A stretch of DNA of 64,000 nt from a virus (Duplodnaviria; Heunggongvirae; Uroviricota; Caudoviricetes), in IMG/VR virus record IMGVR_UViG_3300035516_000805; one strand, given 5' to 3'. The notes below the pieces were generated by a model. The model was not told where the DNA came from and made no database searches. It was given only the letters and a program-made list of their open reading frames with translations. Shown in pieces: positions 23,143 through 55,933 of this stretch (position 1 is its first letter; each line of letters opens with the position of its first letter). The translations under genes were made by a program, and so were the position numbers.

Positions 23143-23436
23143 ATGGCAAATACAACTATTACAATGCGAATTGACGAAGATATAAAAATCCAATTGCAAG
23201 AGTTAACAACAAAATTAGGTATGGATGTTTCAACATACCTTTTAATGGCAGTAAAACAAGGAATAAGAGAGCAGGCATTACCATTTCATCCTAATTTAGG
23301 AGTAAATAGAAATTTAAAGAAGGAAGAAGCGTTTGAGTCTATGGAGGAAATAGTAAATAATAAAGTTATTTTAAATTCTAATATAGATTATGATGCGGAG
23401 TTAGCTTCTTATAGGGATGAAAAATATGGAAAATAA
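23143..23436 (+). CDS. RelB/DinJ-family antitoxin (ribbon-helix-helix)
   Basis: MRIDEDIKIQLQELTTKLGMDVSTYLLMAV is typical of DinJ/RelB; overlaps the downstream PIN gene. Confidence 0.65.
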   Translation: MANTTITMRIDEDIKIQLQELTTKLGMDVSTYLLMAVKQGIREQALPFHPNLGVNRNLKKEEAFESMEEIVNNKVILNSNIDYDAELASYRDEKYGK

Positions 23437-23848
23437 AATTTTAATAGATACAAATATTTTACTTGATTATTTTCTAAAACGAGAGCCATTCTATCAATAT
23501 GCAAAAAAAATAATTTCTTTATGTAAAAGTGATGAAATACAGGGGTGTATCGCTTCTCATTCCATTTCTAATATGTTTTTTATTTTGAGAAAAGAATATT
23601 CATCAAAAGAAAGAAGAATATTATTATTGGATTTGTGTTTGATTTTTACAGTTATTGATATTAATAAAAGTAAACTAATAAATAGTCTTAAAAATGAAGA
23701 TTTCACTGATTTTGAAGATTGTTTACAAATGGAATGTGCAAAAGAATTTGATGCAAAATATATTATAACAAGAAATATAGACGATTATAAAACTTCTGAG
23801 ATTCCGTCAATTACACCAAAAGAATATTTAGAAATTATAGAAAGATAA
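23417..23848 (+). CDS. PIN-domain (VapC-like) toxin
   Basis: ILIDTNILLDY N-terminal PIN motif; later acidic residues; start overlaps the antitoxin gene. Confidence 0.7.
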   Translation: MKNMENKILIDTNILLDYFLKREPFYQYAKKIISLCKSDEIQGCIASHSISNMFFILRKEYSSKERRILLLDLCLIFTVIDINKSKLINSLKNEDFTDFEDCLQMECAKEFDAKYIITRNIDDYKTSEIPSITPKEYLEIIER

Positions 23849-24168: not shown

Positions 24169-24828
24169 ATGGATAAGAAATATGAATTGACAGATGAAAC
24201 AATAAAAATTGATAGCGGTGAAGTATTACATAGAATTAAAGCTTTAAAAGACTTTGCAGACATTAAAGCAGGCGACATTGGAGGATTTGTAGAGTCAGAA
24301 GATAATTTATCCCAAGAAGGTAATTGTTGGATATATAATGAAGCTAAAGTATATAATAACGCTAGAATTTCAGATAATGCTTTAGTTTATGATAATGCTA
24401 AAATAACAGGTAATGCCATAATTTATGGCAATGCTAAAATTTATGAATATGCACATGTCTATGATAATGTTATAATATCCGGTAATGCCATAATTAGTGG
24501 CAATGCTAAAGTTTATGATAATGCTAAAGTTTCATATAATGCACAAGTCTATGGTAATGCTATAATTTCAAATGATGTTAAAATTTGGGGTAATGCAATT
24601 ATTTATGATAATGCCAGAATTTATGATTTAGCTAGAATTTATGATGATGCGAAAATTTTTGGTCACGCTAAAATTTATGGTAACACTAAAATTTTAGGCA
24701 AATCAAAAATTTGCAACAACACTGAAATTCATGGTAATTTCTTTATCTGTGATAATGTAAAGTTTGATGCTAATATGTCTGTCATTGAAAATTTTAATAA
24801 AGATGAACAAATAAATGAAGAACGATAA
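24169..24828 (+). CDS. hexapeptide-repeat (left-handed beta-helix) protein
   Basis: About 20 consecutive 6-residue repeats [YF]xNAx[IV] (18-bp DNA periodicity). Confidence 0.7.
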   Translation: MDKKYELTDETIKIDSGEVLHRIKALKDFADIKAGDIGGFVESEDNLSQEGNCWIYNEAKVYNNARISDNALVYDNAKITGNAIIYGNAKIYEYAHVYDNVIISGNAIISGNAKVYDNAKVSYNAQVYGNAIISNDVKIWGNAIIYDNARIYDLARIYDDAKIFGHAKIYGNTKILGKSKICNNTEIHGNFFICDNVKFDANMSVIENFNKDEQINEER

Positions 24829-24859
24829 AAATTTATAAAAAAATAAAGATATAAAAGAT

Positions 24860-24930
24860 GGAAGGTCAGTTAGTAGTCCTTTAGGACTACTAACACTACT
24901 AATGGTAGTTTTACCTTCCATCAAAGTTAA
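24860..24930 (+). repeat. long composite hairpin repeat
   Basis: tggaaggtcagttagtagtcctttaggactactaacactactaatggtagttttaccttccatc. Confidence 0.7.
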
Positions 24931-24970: not shown

Positions 24971-25228
24971 TTAACTACGATTGTTATTACGTTGAAGTTT
25001 AAATTTTGCCATTGAAGAATCCGGGAAATCTCGTTCAATTTTTTCATTAATTGCAGTCCTAATAAATTTTCCTACCGGCATATTTGATAAATCTGCTGCC
25101 GGTTTTATCTTTTCATTATATTCTTCGTTTACAAAGGGAATTAATACCCTATGTGTATTTGTCTTTATATACTGCTTCGTCTTTTCATTCCATTCTTTCG
25201 TATATCTTCCTGTTCTTGAATCCGCCAT
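24971..25228 (-). CDS. hypothetical protein sharing its N-terminal motif with the + ORF at 26245
   Basis: N-terminus MADSRTGRYTKEWNEK is encoded by the left arm of an inverted repeat. Confidence 0.4.
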   Translation of the reverse strand: MADSRTGRYTKEWNEKTKQYIKTNTHRVLIPFVNEEYNEKIKPAADLSNMPVGKFIRTAINEKIERDFPDSSMAKFKLQRNNNRS

Positions 25229-25230
25229 AA
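25183..25230. repeat. left arm of ~33-bp inverted repeat (partner at 26317-26349 and its tandem copy)
   Basis: The reverse complement encodes SRTGRYTKEWNEK, as does the right arm; 3 mismatches over 33 nt. Confidence 0.7.
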
Positions 25231-25334
25231 TATTTTCTTCCTTTCTATATTTTTTTAATACTTATACATTCAAATTTTATCTTATTTACAGTATGTCTTT
25301 CATTATTAATAATGTCAAATAAAAATTTTTATGT

Positions 25335-25349
25335 TTTTTACATTATTTA
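25335..25349 (+). promoter_or_regulatory. class II motif
   Basis: ttttttacattatttatatataaaatgg. Confidence 0.35.
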
Positions 25350-25482
25350 TATATAAAATGGAAGTTCTTTAGAACTTTTTAAATAGTAGTTATAAAATAA
25401 TTACTCTGATAGTAGTTATAAAGGAACTACTGTCTAAGATGGAAGGTTCAGACTTGGCTTTTAAAGATGAAAGGAAGAAAAA

Positions 25483-26220
25483 ATGATTGATTTTGCTATA
25501 ATTATTCCCTGTTACAATGAAGAAGCTGCCATAGAAGACGTTTTGAAAAATCTTATTTATGTTATTACACATGAGTTTACTGATAATAGTGTAAAAATTT
25601 TTGTATATGATAATAATTCTACTGATAATAGTGCAAAAATTGTAACAGACTTTATTGCTCAAAATTCATATGAAAATTTATCTGTAGAGTTAAGACATAC
25701 ATATAAACAGGGAAAGGGTTACGTTATCCGGCAGGCTTTTAAGGAAATTAATGCCAGATGCTATTGTATGATTGACGGTGATGATACTTACAGTGTAAGT
25801 AAACTTAAAACTATGTATGACCTTATAATCAATAAAAAAACTGATATGGTTATAGGTGACAGACTTTCTACAAGTTATTTTACTGAAAATAAGAGAATAT
25901 TTCACAATTTTGGAAATAAACTGGTAAAAAATATGATAAACAATATGTTTAATACATCATATAATGATATACTGTCAGGTTTTAGAACATTTTCATATAA
26001 TTTTGTAAAAACTTTTCCAGTTACTTCCAATGGTTTTACACTTGAAACAGAGATGAATATTTACGCAGCAAGTCATAACATGTCTGTTTTAGATATACCA
26101 GTGGATTATAAAGACCGTAAAAATGGCAGTAAATCCAAAGTGAAAACAATTCCTGATGGTATCCGTATTATTTTTAAAATTTTAGATATGTTCAGACTAT
26201 ATAATCTTCCAACTAACTAA
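25483..26220 (+). CDS. family-2 glycosyltransferase (GtrB/CsbB/DPM1-like)
   Basis: IIIPCYNEE...VYDNNSTDNS...MIDGDD are signature GT2 motifs. Confidence 0.8.
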   Translation: MIDFAIIIPCYNEEAAIEDVLKNLIYVITHEFTDNSVKIFVYDNNSTDNSAKIVTDFIAQNSYENLSVELRHTYKQGKGYVIRQAFKEINARCYCMIDGDDTYSVSKLKTMYDLIINKKTDMVIGDRLSTSYFTENKRIFHNFGNKLVKNMINNMFNTSYNDILSGFRTFSYNFVKTFPVTSNGFTLETEMNIYAASHNMSVLDIPVDYKDRKNGSKSKVKTIPDGIRIIFKILDMFRLYNLPTN

Positions 26221-26244
26221 GTCTAAAGAAAGGAACAACTTATT

Positions 26245-26346
26245 ATGCTTTATCAGAAGATATATTCAAAAACAGGTAGATATACAAAAGAATGTATGCT
26301 TTATCAGAAGATATATTCAAAAACAGGTAGATATACAAAAGAATGG
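26245..26346 (+). repeat. 51-bp perfect tandem duplication at the 5' end of the membrane-protein gene
   Basis: atgctttatcagaagatatattcaaaaacaggtagatatacaaaagaatgt x2. Confidence 0.85.
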
Positions 26347-27228
26347 AACGAAAAAGAGAATACTTCAACAGCTATATGCTGGCGTATAACAATATGGTCA
26401 ATTTTTATAATCACCCTTTTATATTTATCATTTCAATTTAACGATACAGATTTATACTATATTATTCCAACAGGACGTTATATTTTACAAAATGGAATCC
26501 CTTATGAAAATCCATTTATAACAACAGCCGGACAAAATATTGTTATTCAAAATTGGCTGTATTGTGTAATTGTAGCATTTATTTATAATCATTTACACAG
26601 TGTAGGTTTGTGGCTATTACAATTAATAATTATAACTGCAATGGTAACTATAATCTTTAAATTCTTTGATTTTAAACATTCAGAGAATAAACTTATGGTT
26701 ATTATTTTTTCACTTATTATTATAAAATTATTTAGTTATATAAATTTAAGACCTGAAATACTTACTTTTATTTTAATTATATTAGAAATTCTAGGTTTGG
26801 AAAAATATATTACTACTGAGAAAGCATACTGGCTGTGTTTATTACCACTAACTACATTACTTGAGATTAACTGTCACGCAAGCTATTGGATAATGCATTT
26901 TATTGTAATTTTACCTTATTGTGTTCCAACTTTACCTGCAATTTCACGCAGTAAAAATACTTATATTAAAAACATAAAAAAATTAATCCTGCCAGTTTTT
27001 TCAATGATAGTAACATTATTTATTAATCCGTATAAAGTTAAAGCAATTCGGTATGTTTTTGATGCATTAAAATCCGGAATAATAAAATATAATGAAATTT
27101 GGGAACAACAGCCATTTACAATGTCAGATATATATACATATATATATATGTATATTAATTATTTTTATTATTATGTGGTATCAAAAGAAGTTGACTTCAA
27201 CAGAAACTTATATGTTTATTGGGTTTAA
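26245..27228 (+). pseudogene. polytopic membrane protein, 5' part (GtrC/YfhO-like candidate); frame breaks at a (TA)n tract
   Basis: Multiple TM segments; N-terminus carries a 51-bp tandem duplication; frame continues in the overlapping ORF 27092-27910. Confidence 0.5.
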
Positions 27229-27910
27229 TACATTATTTGTATTTGCTATAAAATGGACAGCTTTTTATGTAATTGCAGTAATGTTTTTATTTAGAGCAAT
27301 TCACAGACAGGTTAAGGAGAAAAATAAAATTGAAAACATTAAAGCTTCTAAAATTAATATTTATCTGCTTTTGATATCCTATACAGTAACATTTTTAGGC
27401 TATATGCTTACAGAAAATTCGTTTAAATGTTTTGATTTTACGGATACATATATGAATACATGTCTAAATAAAAAGAGTCTGCAGCCACTTAATGATATTG
27501 CTGATTATCTTGATGAGAATGACCCTGATGCATCAATATTTGCAATTTTTGAACAGTCAAACTATTTTGAATTTAGAGGCTATAAAGTTTATAGTGATGC
27601 AAGACCGGAACTTTATACAAAAGAAATTGCCGGTTCAGATGATATATCCGTAAATGTTTTGTGTATACAAAAAGGTTATAATGTCTTTTTATATAAAGAA
27701 AATACTGGTATATTTTCATCTTCAGATGAAAATAATTTAGTTAATTCTCTTATAGATTTAAAAACTTATAAAGCTGTAATTGACAGTATTAACACAGATT
27801 ATTTTGTAGTTAATAAGTTTAATACGGCATTTTGGTATTATTTAGAAACATCAGATGATTATACTTTCATTATGGATTCCGGACAATTTGCATTATATTT
27901 AAGGCAGTAG
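27092..27910 (+). pseudogene. polytopic membrane protein, 3' part (same gene as 26245-27228 after a frameshift)
   Basis: The frames overlap around atatatatacatatatatatatgtatat (about 27126-27158); TM helices continue. Confidence 0.5.
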
Positions 27911-27936
27911 TATAAGTACTACTGCCTGTTTATTTA
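27903..27936 (+). terminator. intrinsic terminator
   Basis: ggcagtagta-taag-tactactgcc hairpin followed by tgtttattta. Confidence 0.6.
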
Positions 27937-28016: not shown

Positions 28017-28709
28017 ATGACAACAAACCTAAATAAAATAAAAGAAACTGCAAAACAGTTGTTATATGCTGTTCCGGTTGAACCTATTATTATAGAAGAA
28101 AAAATTTTTCCAATATGTTCTCATCCCTTTACAAATTCAACAACGATGGTTATAAATAAGAATTTTATAAATATAACACAAAATAAACGTGATTTTTACA
28201 AATATATAGGAGATAAAATAAACAATGCAAAAGATTTAGGTGAAATTTATAGACTTATCAATAATCCATACAAACTGACATTTTTTAAATATATCAGTAA
28301 TTTTTTATCTGAAAAAGATTATGCCAATTATCTGGAAAATGTCTGGATTTCGCAGGAAAATCCTAATATGGACATTAATTGTCCGCCAAAAGAATCAGTA
28401 AAATTATTTCGTAAAGCAAATAAGGAATATCTTATGAATAAAGAAGATTATGAAGTTTATAAAAACTTTCCGGAAGAAATGGTTGTTTACCGTGGTGTTG
28501 GCATTGGTAGAACTCCGGCAGGATTATCATGGACAGTTAATCTTGAAAAGGCAGAATGGTTTGCACACCGTTTTGATACTGAAAATGAAAAAGGATATAT
28601 TCAGAAACTTACAGTTAAAAAAGAAAATATACTGGCTTACTTTAATACCAGAGGCGAAGATGAAGTAGTAGTAGATATTTTTAAAAGTCCTAAGATAAAA
28701 AGAATATAA
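28017..28709 (+). CDS. hypothetical protein
   Basis: 230-aa ORF. Confidence 0.55.
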   Translation: MTTNLNKIKETAKQLLYAVPVEPIIIEEKIFPICSHPFTNSTTMVINKNFINITQNKRDFYKYIGDKINNAKDLGEIYRLINNPYKLTFFKYISNFLSEKDYANYLENVWISQENPNMDINCPPKESVKLFRKANKEYLMNKEDYEVYKNFPEEMVVYRGVGIGRTPAGLSWTVNLEKAEWFAHRFDTENEKGYIQKLTVKKENILAYFNTRGEDEVVVDIFKSPKIKRI

Positions 28710-28725
28710 TTATTTTTCTTTACTA

Positions 28726-28752
28726 TTGATTTTTCATTATTAGTAATGTCAG
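28726..28752 (+). promoter_or_regulatory. class I variant TTGATTTTTCATTATTAGTAATGTCA
   Basis: Same variant present 3 times (28726, 29737, 29913). Confidence 0.5.
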
Positions 28753-28787
28753 AATTAATAATAAAGAAAAATAAAGGAGGAGCAATT

Positions 28788-29678
28788 ATGACATACCAAT
28801 TATTTATTTCAGAAATTGAACAGAACGTAAAAAAGAGGGGATACATAGCAGAAATCCGTCAAGTGACAAAAAATAATGATATTATTCTTGATGGTCTTGT
28901 AATAAGAGAAGAAAACGATAATATAGCTCCGGTTATATATCTGAATGATTTTTATAAGAAATTTACAGATGATGCCGTAACTTTAGAGGAAATAACTGAT
29001 AAATTAATATCTATTTATAAAAAGAATAAGTCTGAACATATTGATGCAGAAAAATTGATTGCTTTTAATTCTGTTAAAAATAATATTTGTTATAAATTAA
29101 TTAACACAAAAAGTAATCAGGCATTGTTAGACACAATTCCGCATAGACATTTTTTAGATTTATCCATTGTTTATTATATTAATATGAAAGAAATACTAGG
29201 ACGAAATGCAGAAGGTACAATACTAATTAATAATCAAATTTTAAAGAACTGGAATAAAACTGAAGCAGACCTTTATGAGTTAAGTTCAAGTAATACAAAA
29301 AAGAATTTTCCAGTAGAAATAAAGAAATTTTCATCTATTTTAGAAAATGATTTAGTAGATACTTCGGAAAATCCGGCATATAATTGTATGTATATTCTTT
29401 CCAATAAAACCGGTATAAATGGCAGTGCTGTTATCCTTTATCCGGATATATTAAAAGAGTTTGCGGATAAAGTAAACTCAAACCTTTTACTTATTCCGTC
29501 TTCTACACATGAATGGATTTTATATACTGACGTAGTATATATATATGAATCAGATATAAAGGAATGGACTACAATGATAAAAGATGTAAATAATACAATT
29601 CTTGAAAAGGAAGAAATATTATCAGACCATCCATATTTTTACTACAGAGAAACACGCAAGATAGTCAGTTTATCGTAA
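28788..29678 (+). CDS. hypothetical protein
   Basis: ATG after AAAGGAGG RBS; the track start 28746 lies inside the promoter motif; followed by a strong terminator. Confidence 0.6.
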   Translation: MTYQLFISEIEQNVKKRGYIAEIRQVTKNNDIILDGLVIREENDNIAPVIYLNDFYKKFTDDAVTLEEITDKLISIYKKNKSEHIDAEKLIAFNSVKNNICYKLINTKSNQALLDTIPHRHFLDLSIVYYINMKEILGRNAEGTILINNQILKNWNKTEADLYELSSSNTKKNFPVEIKKFSSILENDLVDTSENPAYNCMYILSNKTGINGSAVILYPDILKEFADKVNSNLLLIPSSTHEWILYTDVVYIYESDIKEWTTMIKDVNNTILEKEEILSDHPYFYYRETRKIVSLS

Positions 29679-30503: not shown

Positions 30504-31121
30504 ATGATTATGAAGATAACAATTGAAAATTTAACAGCAAAGGCAAATAATAACTATTTTCCAAGTAAGAAATATAAGAATATTTGTGCTGACCTTGAAA
30601 GTTTAGACGATATTTCTTTTAAAGAAGGTGATACAGACAATGTTGTACACTTTATTAAGAAATTTTTTAAGGAAAAGAAGTCAGACCAGATTATTATTTT
30701 AACAAAGTTTATTCATTCTTATGTAAATCAGAAAGAGGACTTAAAAGAAGCTCAGGAACAAAATTTTATTTTAACAAAGAAGTTCTTAGAACAAGCTCAG
30801 GAACAGTCTATTTCAGTAACAACTGAAAATGTTACTTCACCGGATTTTATAACATTACCGATTATTAAGGAAGTAACACTGGTTAATAATACTTTGACAG
30901 CACTCTTTAAGGACGGAGATACAACAACATCAACGTGTATGAAATGTGATACATTTGATTATGAAAAGGGTTTGTTGTTATGTGTACTTCGTAAGATACT
31001 GGGTGAGAAGAACTTTAAAAAGTTATATTATCGTAATATTTTTAAGCTGACAAAGAAATACAATCAGAGTCAGTCAGAAGATGATGAAACAGAAAGATGT
31101 AATATTGATTTGTTTGAATAA
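30504..31121 (+). CDS. hypothetical protein
   Basis: RBS AAGGAG. Confidence 0.55.
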   Translation: MIMKITIENLTAKANNNYFPSKKYKNICADLESLDDISFKEGDTDNVVHFIKKFFKEKKSDQIIILTKFIHSYVNQKEDLKEAQEQNFILTKKFLEQAQEQSISVTTENVTSPDFITLPIIKEVTLVNNTLTALFKDGDTTTSTCMKCDTFDYEKGLLLCVLRKILGEKNFKKLYYRNIFKLTKKYNQSQSEDDETERCNIDLFE

Positions 31122-31225
31122 ATTATAAATTATATATATTTAAAGGGTAAAATTATCTAATTTTACCCTTTAAGATGAATTAACTAATAACGATTAAAAT
31201 ACAACAGCAAAGGAGAAAAAAGGAA

Positions 31226-46475: not shown

Positions 46476-47084
46476 TTATAATTTAAAATATAAATCTTTA
46501 ATTGTTTTTGTTGAAATATCTTCAAAAATATCATTAAGCAATTCATCACCAGAAATATATTTTGTACTTTCAAGATTTGTTGTTATAAGTTTTTTAATTA
46601 TATTATCATATTTAAAATCTTTTTGTATAAATCGTTCCATTTGTTGCAAAATAACTAATAATTCTTTTGCTGTTACAATATAAGAATCATTTGGAATAGG
46701 ATAATCATTAATATTACCTGTGACAAGCATAGATTCAAATTCCTGAGAACTTTCTTTAACTTCAAAAAACGGAATATCATCTTTATCAGGCATTATATTA
46801 TATAATTCTTGTTTTATTATTTTTACATCATTTATAAATATTCCATTTTTTATAAGTATATAAAGTGTATTTTGAAGCATCTCATCTGTTATAAGATGTC
46901 GAGGGTCCTTAAATTTATTATAATGGAATACTTTATAATATTCTTTTAATATTCTTTTATCAAATATTGGAATTAAATTTCCTTTTTCAACTAATTCTAA
47001 AACACTAAATGGAGCATTTGAACTAGATAACATAGCAGAAACCAAAACATTAGTATCAATTATAACAAATGCTTTAATTTTCAT
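46476..47084 (-). CDS. PIN-domain protein (putative toxin)
   Basis: N-terminal VIIDTNVLVSA PIN motif. Confidence 0.6.
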   Translation of the reverse strand: MKIKAFVIIDTNVLVSAMLSSSNAPFSVLELVEKGNLIPIFDKRILKEYYKVFHYNKFKDPRHLITDEMLQNTLYILIKNGIFINDVKIIKQELYNIMPDKDDIPFFEVKESSQEFESMLVTGNINDYPIPNDSYIVTAKELLVILQQMERFIQKDFKYDNIIKKLITTNLESTKYISGDELLNDIFEDISTKTIKDLYFKL

Positions 47085-55360: not shown

Positions 55361-55933
55361 TTGAAGGCTTCTACTTTAGATTCAATCATTATGTTTTATT
55401 CAGATAAATGTAAAAATATTACGCTTGATGTTATTGATAGTATAACAAAATTAGGATTTCAATTAACTGCATATAAAGTAACAGTCGAGACAAAGAACGC
55501 ACTTGACTTTCAATTATCTTCTTATCTGGGATTTTTAATCGGTAAAGGTGGAACAAATACTGATTATTATATTATATCGAATGATAAAGGATATGACTGT
55601 TTATCGAAATATTGGAAGGAACGTAATATCAAACTTACTAGGATATCAGTAGAAGAACCTTCCGCCAATAAAGCACCGGTAAAAGTAAATCCATCTTCTG
55701 AGTCAAATAAAAAGAAAAATAAAGTAAAATCAACTAATATTGCTACTTTAGATGAAATAAAAATGTTTTTATCTAAAGCAGATAATCCTGAATTTGTATT
55801 AACGATATTTAATCAATATAATAAAAAATGTGAAATTTGTAATGCTTTAAGCAAACATTTTAGAAATAATAAAAAGACAAGTGTTGTATATAAAAAATTG
55901 AAGCCTCTTTTAAAAGAGAAGAATAAAACTTGA
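55361..55933 (+). CDS. hypothetical protein (possibly fused to the 25-aa ORF 55276-55353 via an A8 tract)
   Basis: TTG-start ORF; a -1 shift in A8 (55341-55348) would join it to the upstream ORF MNYYLVDCENVGIDGVKKL. Confidence 0.5.
   Translation: MKASTLDSIIMFYSDKCKNITLDVIDSITKLGFQLTAYKVTVETKNALDFQLSSYLGFLIGKGGTNTDYYIISNDKGYDCLSKYWKERNIKLTRISVEEPSANKAPVKVNPSSESNKKKNKVKSTNIATLDEIKMFLSKADNPEFVLTIFNQYNKKCEICNALSKHFRNNKKTSVVYKKLKPLLKEKNKT

Follow-up and report, generated by a model that had tools for sequence, protein, structure and literature searches.

The locus described here lies at positions 24,971-27,910 of a 64,000-nucleotide stretch (hereafter the window) of IMG/VR virus record IMGVR_UViG_3300035516_000805, and the 64-kb window is itself part of an element of 92 kb or more. 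The locus carries a two-gene cassette, in which a glycosyltransferase of family 2 (GT2) is followed by a polytopic membrane protein with the predicted fold of a GT-C glycosyltransferase, and it is preceded by a divergently oriented gene for a small, putative protein of the ribbon-helix-helix (RHH) type. Both cassette genes are disrupted, and the region between and around them contains several repeats. The features concerned are the following.

24971-25228, minus strand: solitary putative RHH protein of 85 amino acids (RelB/DUF6290-like), divergent from the GT2 gene, recognised by weak matches to hidden Markov models (HMMs) and by remote homologues.
25182-25221, unstranded: left arm of an inverted repeat, situated within codons 3-16 of the RHH gene (repeat scan).
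25229-25482, unstranded: intergenic region separating the divergent RHH and GT2 genes, the part of the locus most diverged between two lineages of the element (lineage comparison).
25483-26220, plus strand: GT2 (GtrB/CsbB/AglJ-like) polyprenyl-phosphate glycosyltransferase of 245 amino acids, catalytic domain only (PF00535, PHROG, homologues).
26244-26345, plus strand: perfect in-frame tandem duplication of 2 x 51 bp, comprising the start codon and 16 codons of the GT-C gene (repeat scan, contigs).
26245-27150, plus strand: 5' part of the GT-C gene in frame 1, with the first transmembrane helix (TM1), DTD in external loop 1, NLRPE and EINxHASYW (alignment, model).
26315-26354, unstranded: right arm of the inverted repeat, situated within the codons for YSKTGRYTKEWNEK (codons 7-20 from the ATG of the second duplication copy).
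27139-27148, plus strand: (TA)5 run, part of ATATATATACATATATATATATGTATAT (27128-27155), at which the frame breaks (homologue alignment, lineage contigs).
27151-27910, plus strand: 3' part of the GT-C gene in frame 2, with the remaining transmembrane helices and an extracytoplasmic C-terminal domain bearing an invariant G..D.RPE.Y.
27902-27927, plus strand: hairpin and T run resembling an intrinsic terminator where the GT-C gene ends (one such site, with 0.4 expected).

The membrane protein belongs to a family of 120 homologous clusters, nearly all of them 480-575 amino acids long and without annotation, and neither of its two open reading frames (ORFs) in the window has a match in Pfam (E <= 0.01) or NCBIfam. 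In an alignment of 53 homologues a DTD motif stands just past TM1, with D52 invariant and D50 at least 90% conserved, giving an acidic DxD-type motif in the first extracytoplasmic loop (FNDTDLYY in the window copy). Also invariant or at least 90% conserved are R152/P153, E190/N192/H194 and D441/R443/E445, and the conserved blocks include NLRPE, EINxHASYW and a C-terminal D-x-RPE-x-Y. The AlphaFold (AF2) model of P0002, a homologue 50% identical to the window protein once the frame of the latter is repaired (see below), has a pLDDT of 93.2 and a pTM of 0.91, and a Foldseek comparison of this model with the PDB returned STT3/OST, DPY19, AglB, AftA, ArnT and AftD (probability 1.00, E down to 2.5e-07, TM-score about 0.5), as well as Emb and PMT. 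A profile search of PDB sequences with the family gave no match, such that the link was provided by fold comparison alone; judged from the model, the fold of the family is that of GT-C glycosyltransferases. We treat these proteins as a sizeable and previously undescribed family of predicted GT-C enzymes, for which neither Pfam nor NCBIfam holds a model.

The first-pass annotation had compared the pair to the gtrB-gtrC or csbB-yfhO modules that phages use in receptor modification, and had suggested a search of the membrane protein against YfhO. That search gave no match for the membrane protein, and none of the 53 homologues matches the YfhO model (PF09586) at E <= 0.1; the weak Pfam matches that do occur are to PMT_2 (1/53, E = 0.0094) and DUF6541 (3/53, E = 0.0016). 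Moreover, the GT-C has no tblastn match in 50,697 phage records, no counterpart among predicted viral structures (BFVD) at E <= 0.001, and one remote match among deposited plasmids. Membership in YfhO or GtrC is thus upheld neither by HMMs nor by the phage collection.

The assignment of the upstream gene as a GtrB/CsbB-like GT2 is borne out, with a match to Pfam PF00535 (6e-20, residues 6-158), a match to the PHROG of GtrB-like O-antigen conversion proteins (4.8e-17), and a DGDD motif (DxD) that is conserved with its homologues. Its nearest NCBIfam models are AglJ (1.1e-40), dolichyl-phosphate hexose transferase and PpgS, all falling under their curated cut-offs; indeed, no curated equivalog cut-off (AglJ, PpgS, ArnC and others) is exceeded, the best score, for AglJ, being 139.9 bits where 325 are required. 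In the related loci L015-L024, L029 and L032 a GT2 of about 325-337 amino acids is found directly upstream of the GT-C gene, and the order GT2 then GT-C is conserved in relatives.

Pairs of this kind resemble the multi-component transmembrane glycosylation systems of Firmicutes, such as CsbB/YfhO, GtlA/GtlB, CsdAB/CD/EF and GacI-J/GacL, each of which is accompanied by a GtcA/CflA flippase (PMC8035078). The genes for a GT-A/GT2 and a GT-C enzyme are likewise adjacent, a DxD-type motif likewise lies in an external loop, the hosts are likewise Firmicutes, and STT3, AglB, AftD and ArnT, which are structural neighbours of the window GT-C, are also those listed for such enzymes (PMC8035078). Unlike in CsbB/YfhO-type systems, however, the GT-C has no sequence match to YfhO or to any named family, and the window cassette further departs from the Firmicute systems in having neither a flippase gene nor a GT2 anchor, in being frame-shifted, and in residing on a mobile element. 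No GtrA-type flippase (PF04138) is present among the 55 window ORFs of at least 100 amino acids, and none is listed in the homologous GT2/GT-C loci; it is possible that the flippase is encoded by the host instead. The gtrABC modules of Salmonella and Shigella phages are similar in being accessory, horizontally acquired modules in which a GtrB-like GT2 supplies a lipid-linked sugar to an outward-facing transferase, but the window cassette has no gtrA, its GT-C is unrelated to phage proteins, its carrier is plasmid-like, and its host is Gram-positive. The known phase variation of gtr modules, moreover, is epigenetic (Dam/OxyR) and involves no repeat tract. The surface-glycosylation pair of the first-pass annotation therefore survives as a GT2 plus a polytopic glycosyltransferase, and loses its YfhO/GtrC identity and its attribution to a phage.

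The membrane gene starts in frame 1, which extends from 26245 up to the stop codon at 27228; an open stretch in frame 2 overlaps it, spanning about 27086-27910. Full-length homologues of 520-575 amino acids place the switch point at ACA(TA)5TG (27139-27148), confirming that the frame changes within a (TA)n tract as had been noticed earlier, and since all close homologues are single-frame, the break in the window represents a disruption. Tract lengths of (TA)6 or (TA)3 would be in frame. Addition of one TA to ACA(TA)5TG yields YTYIYICILIIFIIMWYQKKLTSTE, which aligns without gaps to YAWAYILALFVFLTMWWKKKLTSTE in the homologues, and the (TA)6-repaired protein of 539 amino acids retains 10/10 invariant and 24/24 near-invariant residues; a gap-free reconstruction with every conserved residue in place suggests that the inactivation is recent.

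Contigs of the element were obtained from JGI and Logan assemblies via protein look-up, and they reproduce the region in several samples at 99-100% identity, the duplication and the shifted tract included, with independent contigs 100% identical over up to 7972 nt. Two element lineages can be distinguished, with genes about 99% identical and intergenic DNA that differs far more. Lineage A (the window, L002, L025) carries (TA)5, and lineage B (L013, L001, L026) carries (TA)4, which leads to an immediate stop. Both alleles, as read from consensus contigs, are out of frame, and each is fixed in its own lineage (3/3 and 3/3 sample sets). Among 5.8 billion protein clusters we found no in-frame allele, and no full-length cluster at 90% identity or more. 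Exact-pattern scans of metagenome and viral contig collections, for the tract with a variable gap and for the outer flank of the right arm, gave no match; these collections evidently lack the element, and the scans are therefore uninformative on alternative alleles or junctions. The tract itself consists of Tyr/Ile codons in DNA of 26% GC, homologues have no repeat at the site, and (TA)5 occurs at 4 sites in the window (the other three at 308, 29536 and 54712) against 0.97 expected, a count reached by 4/100 shuffles.

A second lesion, absent from the first-pass annotation, affects the GT2. The protein is 55-71% identical up to residue 240 to the GT2s that neighbour a GT-C gene, and it then stops at residue 245, after LYN-LPTN and right past the interface helix, where homologues run for about 85 further amino acids that form two membrane helices. 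The window GT2 accordingly lacks the C-terminal two-helix anchor, whereas 117 of the 120 best GT2 homologues measure at least 286 amino acids. No remnant of the anchor was found in the window by tblastn. As the last codons, stop and ribosome-binding region of the gene resemble those of L024, an internal deletion is likely to have taken out the anchor.

Two other short GT2 forms, P0169 (251 amino acids) and P0172 (243 amino acids), end at the same boundary. P0169 is the product of a 1739-bp deletion found in 8 contigs (21 member sequences) of a related element. The deletion took place at a short microhomology, TTAA/AATT (L048 3733 compared with L020 7758-9496), and cost the element both its GT2 anchor and nearly all of its GT-C gene; the left breakpoint lies a few codons from the end point of the window GT2. 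A separate 1-nt deletion, of a G outside repeats, breaks the GT2 of this related element in another sample (L019 at about 7693, compared with L020/L021), and the GT-C gene downstream of it is still intact. These two events in the related element indicate that loss of the cassette is recurrent in nature. The recurrence of anchor-less GT2 ORFs might also mean that the soluble domain alone is retained by selection.

The remaining irregularities concern the 5' end of the GT-C gene. A perfect 51-bp tandem duplication had been reported there, and this proved correct: the two 51-nt copies (26244-26294 and 26295-26345; 2.0 copies in all) show 100% identity, ATG microhomology marks the ends of the unit, and 17 residues are thereby added to the cytoplasmic N-terminus. 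The duplication is present in all spanning contigs of lineages A and B, and the Logan contigs L003 and L025 break inside it. The inverted repeat that brackets the GT2 gene is likewise real, although it was described as 33 bp encoding one and the same peptide, and in fact has 40-nt arms complementary at 36/40 positions (90%), with peptides, SRTGRYTKEWNEK in the minus-strand ORF 24971-25228 and SKTGRYTKEWNEK in the plus-strand ORF from 26245, that differ at one residue. Of the four nucleotide differences three are synonymous, the longest identical run is 11 nt, and lineage B, with a T at 25199, has arms matching at 37/40. A 32-nt core of the arm, allowing up to 3 mismatches, occurs in 64 kb solely at the two arms and has no match in 100 shuffles. 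The right arm was said to lie within the duplication; it does begin in the second copy but extends 9 nt past it, and a partial arm of 31 nt is present in the first copy (26264-26294).

The direction in which this patch moved can be deduced from the relatives of the two genes. The RHH protein itself falls short of curated cut-offs for Pfam DUF6290 (5.9e-05, 23.6 bits against 27) and the NCBIfam RelB antitoxin (3.3e-04, 20.9 bits against 50), and a word-indexed protein search returned the self-match alone; a full-database search with phmmer, however, recovered 28 small homologues with a consistent strand-helix-helix pattern. From these sequence matches it is probably a small DNA-binding regulator, and no toxin gene adjoins it. 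Its remote homologues, of 64-100 amino acids, carry the N-terminal motif natively (GTYTKKGNETAKKY in P0126, GRYNAEWGKK in P0142), and across the patch P0126 matches 6/10 residues, as against 2/10 for GT-C homologues, which have unrelated sequence of equal length at this position. Relative to GT-C homologues the patch preserves length, 29 residues standing ahead of the conserved Trp in either case. Consequently, with the motif native to RHH homologues and foreign to GT-C homologues, the GT-C gene most probably received the inverted patch as a copy of RHH-gene sequence, with length kept, an outcome that template switch or gene conversion would yield. We rejected a reading of the repeat as a transposon or miniature inverted-repeat transposable element, since the left arm belongs natively to the RHH coding sequence and no target-site duplication is found at the arms.

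With respect to the carrier, GC content is 25-30% across the window, and the window encodes plasmid-type proteins, namely an actin-like partition protein, a type IA topoisomerase and three RecD/PIF1-like helicases, along with an S26 peptidase, a DUF5688 protein and a sigma factor. Genes of toxin or defence type (PIN, RelB, HipA-like, Fic) are frequent. No phage structural genes were recognised in the window by PHROG comparison, and the locus region has no megablast match to deposited phages or plasmids. GT-C relatives are located in Bacillota/Clostridia metagenome-assembled genomes from rumen and gut, and also on similar large elements from human gut metagenomes. The phage origin assumed at first is consequently not sustained, given plasmid-type window genes and the lack of any match in the phage collection or among viral structures.

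We favour the reading that the locus is a recently inactivated accessory GT2 plus GT-C cassette, that it is carried by a large mobile element, plasmid-like in character, from Clostridia of the gut or rumen, and that slippage during replication and template switching left its irregularities as scars, and we regard this combination, taken as a whole, as probable though far from certain. An intact cassette would be expected to work like the multi-component systems of Firmicutes: using a nucleotide sugar as its donor, the GT2 would charge undecaprenyl phosphate with the sugar on the inner membrane face, a flippase, for which the window has no gene, would turn the lipid-linked sugar outward, and the GT-C, whose DxD motif lies in external loop 1, would transfer it to an extracytoplasmic acceptor, for example teichoic acid, wall polysaccharide or protein, a surface or receptor modification that may benefit the element or its host. 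Subsequently, an ancestral (TA)6 run in the GT-C gene, coding for Tyr-Ile-Tyr-Ile, would have shrunk by one TA unit, and by a second in the sister lineage, and an internal deletion would have cost the GT2 its membrane anchor. At its 5' end the GT-C gene would have acquired the 40-nt inverted patch from the neighbouring RHH gene, presumably followed by the 51-bp microhomology-bounded duplication. All of these changes are of kinds that replication slippage or template switching would make in very AT-rich DNA. For the tract, the simplest history has a first unit lost in the common ancestor of the two lineages and a further one lost neutrally in lineage B, and the data contain no positive sign of reversible switching.

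Several points weigh against such a history of decay. The GT-C gene is otherwise undamaged, two missing bases being its single defect, and the in-frame duplication and the length-preserving in-frame patch hint that both arose while the gene was under selection. The truncated GT2 need not be dead, as GT2 enzymes without transmembrane helices can work with a membrane partner, as do GacI/GacJ (PMC8035078). Additionally, minority in-frame alleles would be invisible in consensus contigs, and contig L014 (JGI 3300043093) starts inside the TA tract, at the equivalent of window position 27131, which could reflect heterogeneity within the sample, or merely low coverage or low complexity. Finally, the tract is a mutational hot spot: within about 1% divergence, a very brief evolutionary interval, it has altered in length on at least two occasions, as is expected for such sites.

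One rival reading is a contingency locus, in which slipped-strand mispairing of (TA)n would toggle the GT-C between on ((TA)6 or (TA)3) and off ((TA)5 or (TA)4) and so make glycosylation phase-variable. Contingency loci are known from glycosyltransferase genes, for example lgtA and lgtC of Neisseria, lic2A of Haemophilus and the poly-G genes of Campylobacter, and the window gene is like them in that a short intragenic repeat sets the frame of a putative surface glycosyltransferase. The frame break sits exactly in the dinucleotide run, one extra unit would give a perfect gene with all conserved residues intact, two tract lengths are found among near-identical elements, and the break of L014 inside the tract would fit as well. 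Nevertheless, the window tract differs from known contingency loci in having 4-5 units, in being off in both alleles, in being bound to lineage and in not being conserved in homologues. Five units are short for a hypermutable dinucleotide tract. Fixation by lineage fits one slow mutation better than rapid switching, the protein collection holds no on allele, the run can be read as Tyr/Ile codons in AT-rich DNA that has three other such sites in the window, and related cassettes have been inactivated by ordinary deletions. We thus consider a contingency locus unlikely, and the phase-variable expression proposed in the first-pass annotation is not borne out by two lineage-fixed off alleles. Its broadest version, in which (TA)n genuinely toggles the undescribed GT-C, in-frame minorities are hidden, and patch and duplication add a second layer of control (the RHH-derived patch may then be a putative RHH operator or a recombination site), is as a whole distinctly unlikely.

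Very unlikely, in our view, is a cassette that still functions, in which the GT-C would be produced as two separate chains or arise through ribosomal frameshifting, while a membrane partner from the host would assist the anchor-less GT2. Both GT-C halves retain all of their conserved residues, and frame-2 ATGs are available at 27092, 27173 and 27212. No Shine-Dalgarno sequence precedes any of these ATGs, however, no known slippery or stimulatory signal for frameshifting is present, and the sister (TA)4 allele would require another shift and stops at once. We know of no split GT-C enzymes. As for the GT2, GT-A enzymes without transmembrane helices do exist alongside separate membrane partners (PMC8035078).

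A further proposal assigns a regulatory role to the patch, which, partly doubled by the duplication, would form a putative RHH operator and bring the GT-C gene under the autoregulation of the RHH protein. The patch most probably does derive from the 5' end of the RHH gene itself, and three of the four arm differences are synonymous; the putative sites, on the other hand, lie inside coding sequence, away from the promoter, and the arrangement recurs in no relative, which makes co-regulation highly improbable. Such a role would draw on the habit of RHH proteins of binding repeated operator half-sites.

Still less credible is an inversion switch, in which a recombinase would invert the 1.1 kb enclosed by the arms, swapping promoters, start codons and N-termini between the RHH and GT-C genes and uncoupling the GT2. 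The repeat is far beyond chance, and because its arms encode nearly the same peptide in the same frame both genes would stay open after a flip. Invertons and intragenic inversions of gut bacteria have inverted repeats that bracket promoters and 5' gene ends near surface-structure genes, as the window repeats do beside theirs. Unlike invertons, however, the window arms are imperfect (4/40 positions differing, with no identical stretch above 11 nt), have no recombinase and no alternative orientation in contigs, and are not conserved in relatives: the same orientation is found in all contigs spanning an arm (9 samples), and no comparable inverted repeat surrounds the GT2 in five related loci. A recombinase or invertase, for which a search had been advised, is absent among the 55 window ORFs of at least 100 amino acids, these representing 64 kb of an element of 92 kb or more, and the suggestion of recombination-switched expression is thus supported neither by orientation nor by enzyme. 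An inversion in the past was rejected as well, since the present orientation gives each protein an N-terminus typical of its own family, in length too. Lastly, assemblers readily make errors at low-complexity TA runs and tandem repeats, but the recurrence of the duplication and the frame-shifted tracts in independent assemblies from two pipelines and several samples excludes the assembly error raised in the first-pass annotation, leaving an assembly or sequencing artefact effectively refuted and its probability negligible.

On the favoured reading of a decaying cassette, the irregularities seem to record the decay of cargo in AT-rich DNA, by unit slippage, tandem duplication, template-switch patches and microhomology deletions, and do not look like a new regulatory device. 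The undescribed GT-C family, whose genes accompany those of GtrB-like GT2s both on chromosomes and on large mobile elements in Clostridia from gut and rumen, would extend the multi-component scheme of surface glycosylation to plasmid-like cargo in these bacteria, and such cargo could alter phage receptors or host-facing glycans. Were on alleles to be seen in reads, the tract would instead represent a rare case of repeat-mediated phase variation on a Firmicute mobile element.

Intergenic DNA carries 200 of the 235 differences between lineages A and B. The region between the RHH and GT2 genes contains a 23-nt direct repeat (25383-25405 and 25409-25431), and a promoter scan of the AT-rich locus was uninformative (34 found against 29.5 expected). 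A small palindromic repeat, GATGGAAGG...TAGTAGT...CCTTCCATC, occupies 24849-24913, between a hexapeptide-repeat gene and the RHH gene, and a related copy lies in the RHH-GT2 intergenic region at 25360-25450. The repeat is also located at L004 9811-9877 and L013 1256-1322. The lineage B version of the intergenic copy is 92.5% identical to window 24849-24913, and the repeat may be a small mobile or recombining hairpin element.

The hexapeptide-repeat gene, upstream of the RHH gene at 24169-24828, encodes a beta-solenoid protein (YdcK repeat, Hexapep) and is made of an 18-nt periodic array of about 19.6 copies. It accounts for 29 of the 35 within-gene differences between lineages A and B, which indicates much faster evolution than that of its neighbours. 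Directly downstream of the cassette, 28017-28709 encodes a 230-amino-acid protein of PHROG 4776 (unknown function, 1.4e-43) without a Pfam match, followed at 28746-29678 by the DUF5688 protein (2.4e-79), and both are kept in the two lineages. Elsewhere in the window, the toxin and defence-type genes comprise three HipA_C-like kinases, three PIN-domain proteins and two Fic/DOC proteins; the RelB-like partner of one of the PIN-domain proteins is seen in L002, and an SNF2 helicase and an RlaP-type nucleotidyltransferase are also encoded (regions concerned: 11203-13207, 23417-23848, 46476-47084, 55361-55933, 60217-61266 and 62033-63770). Just 3' of an ORF of 205 amino acids (30504-31121), BLAST self-hits reveal a perfect palindrome, or inverted self-match, of 34 nt at 31140-31173.

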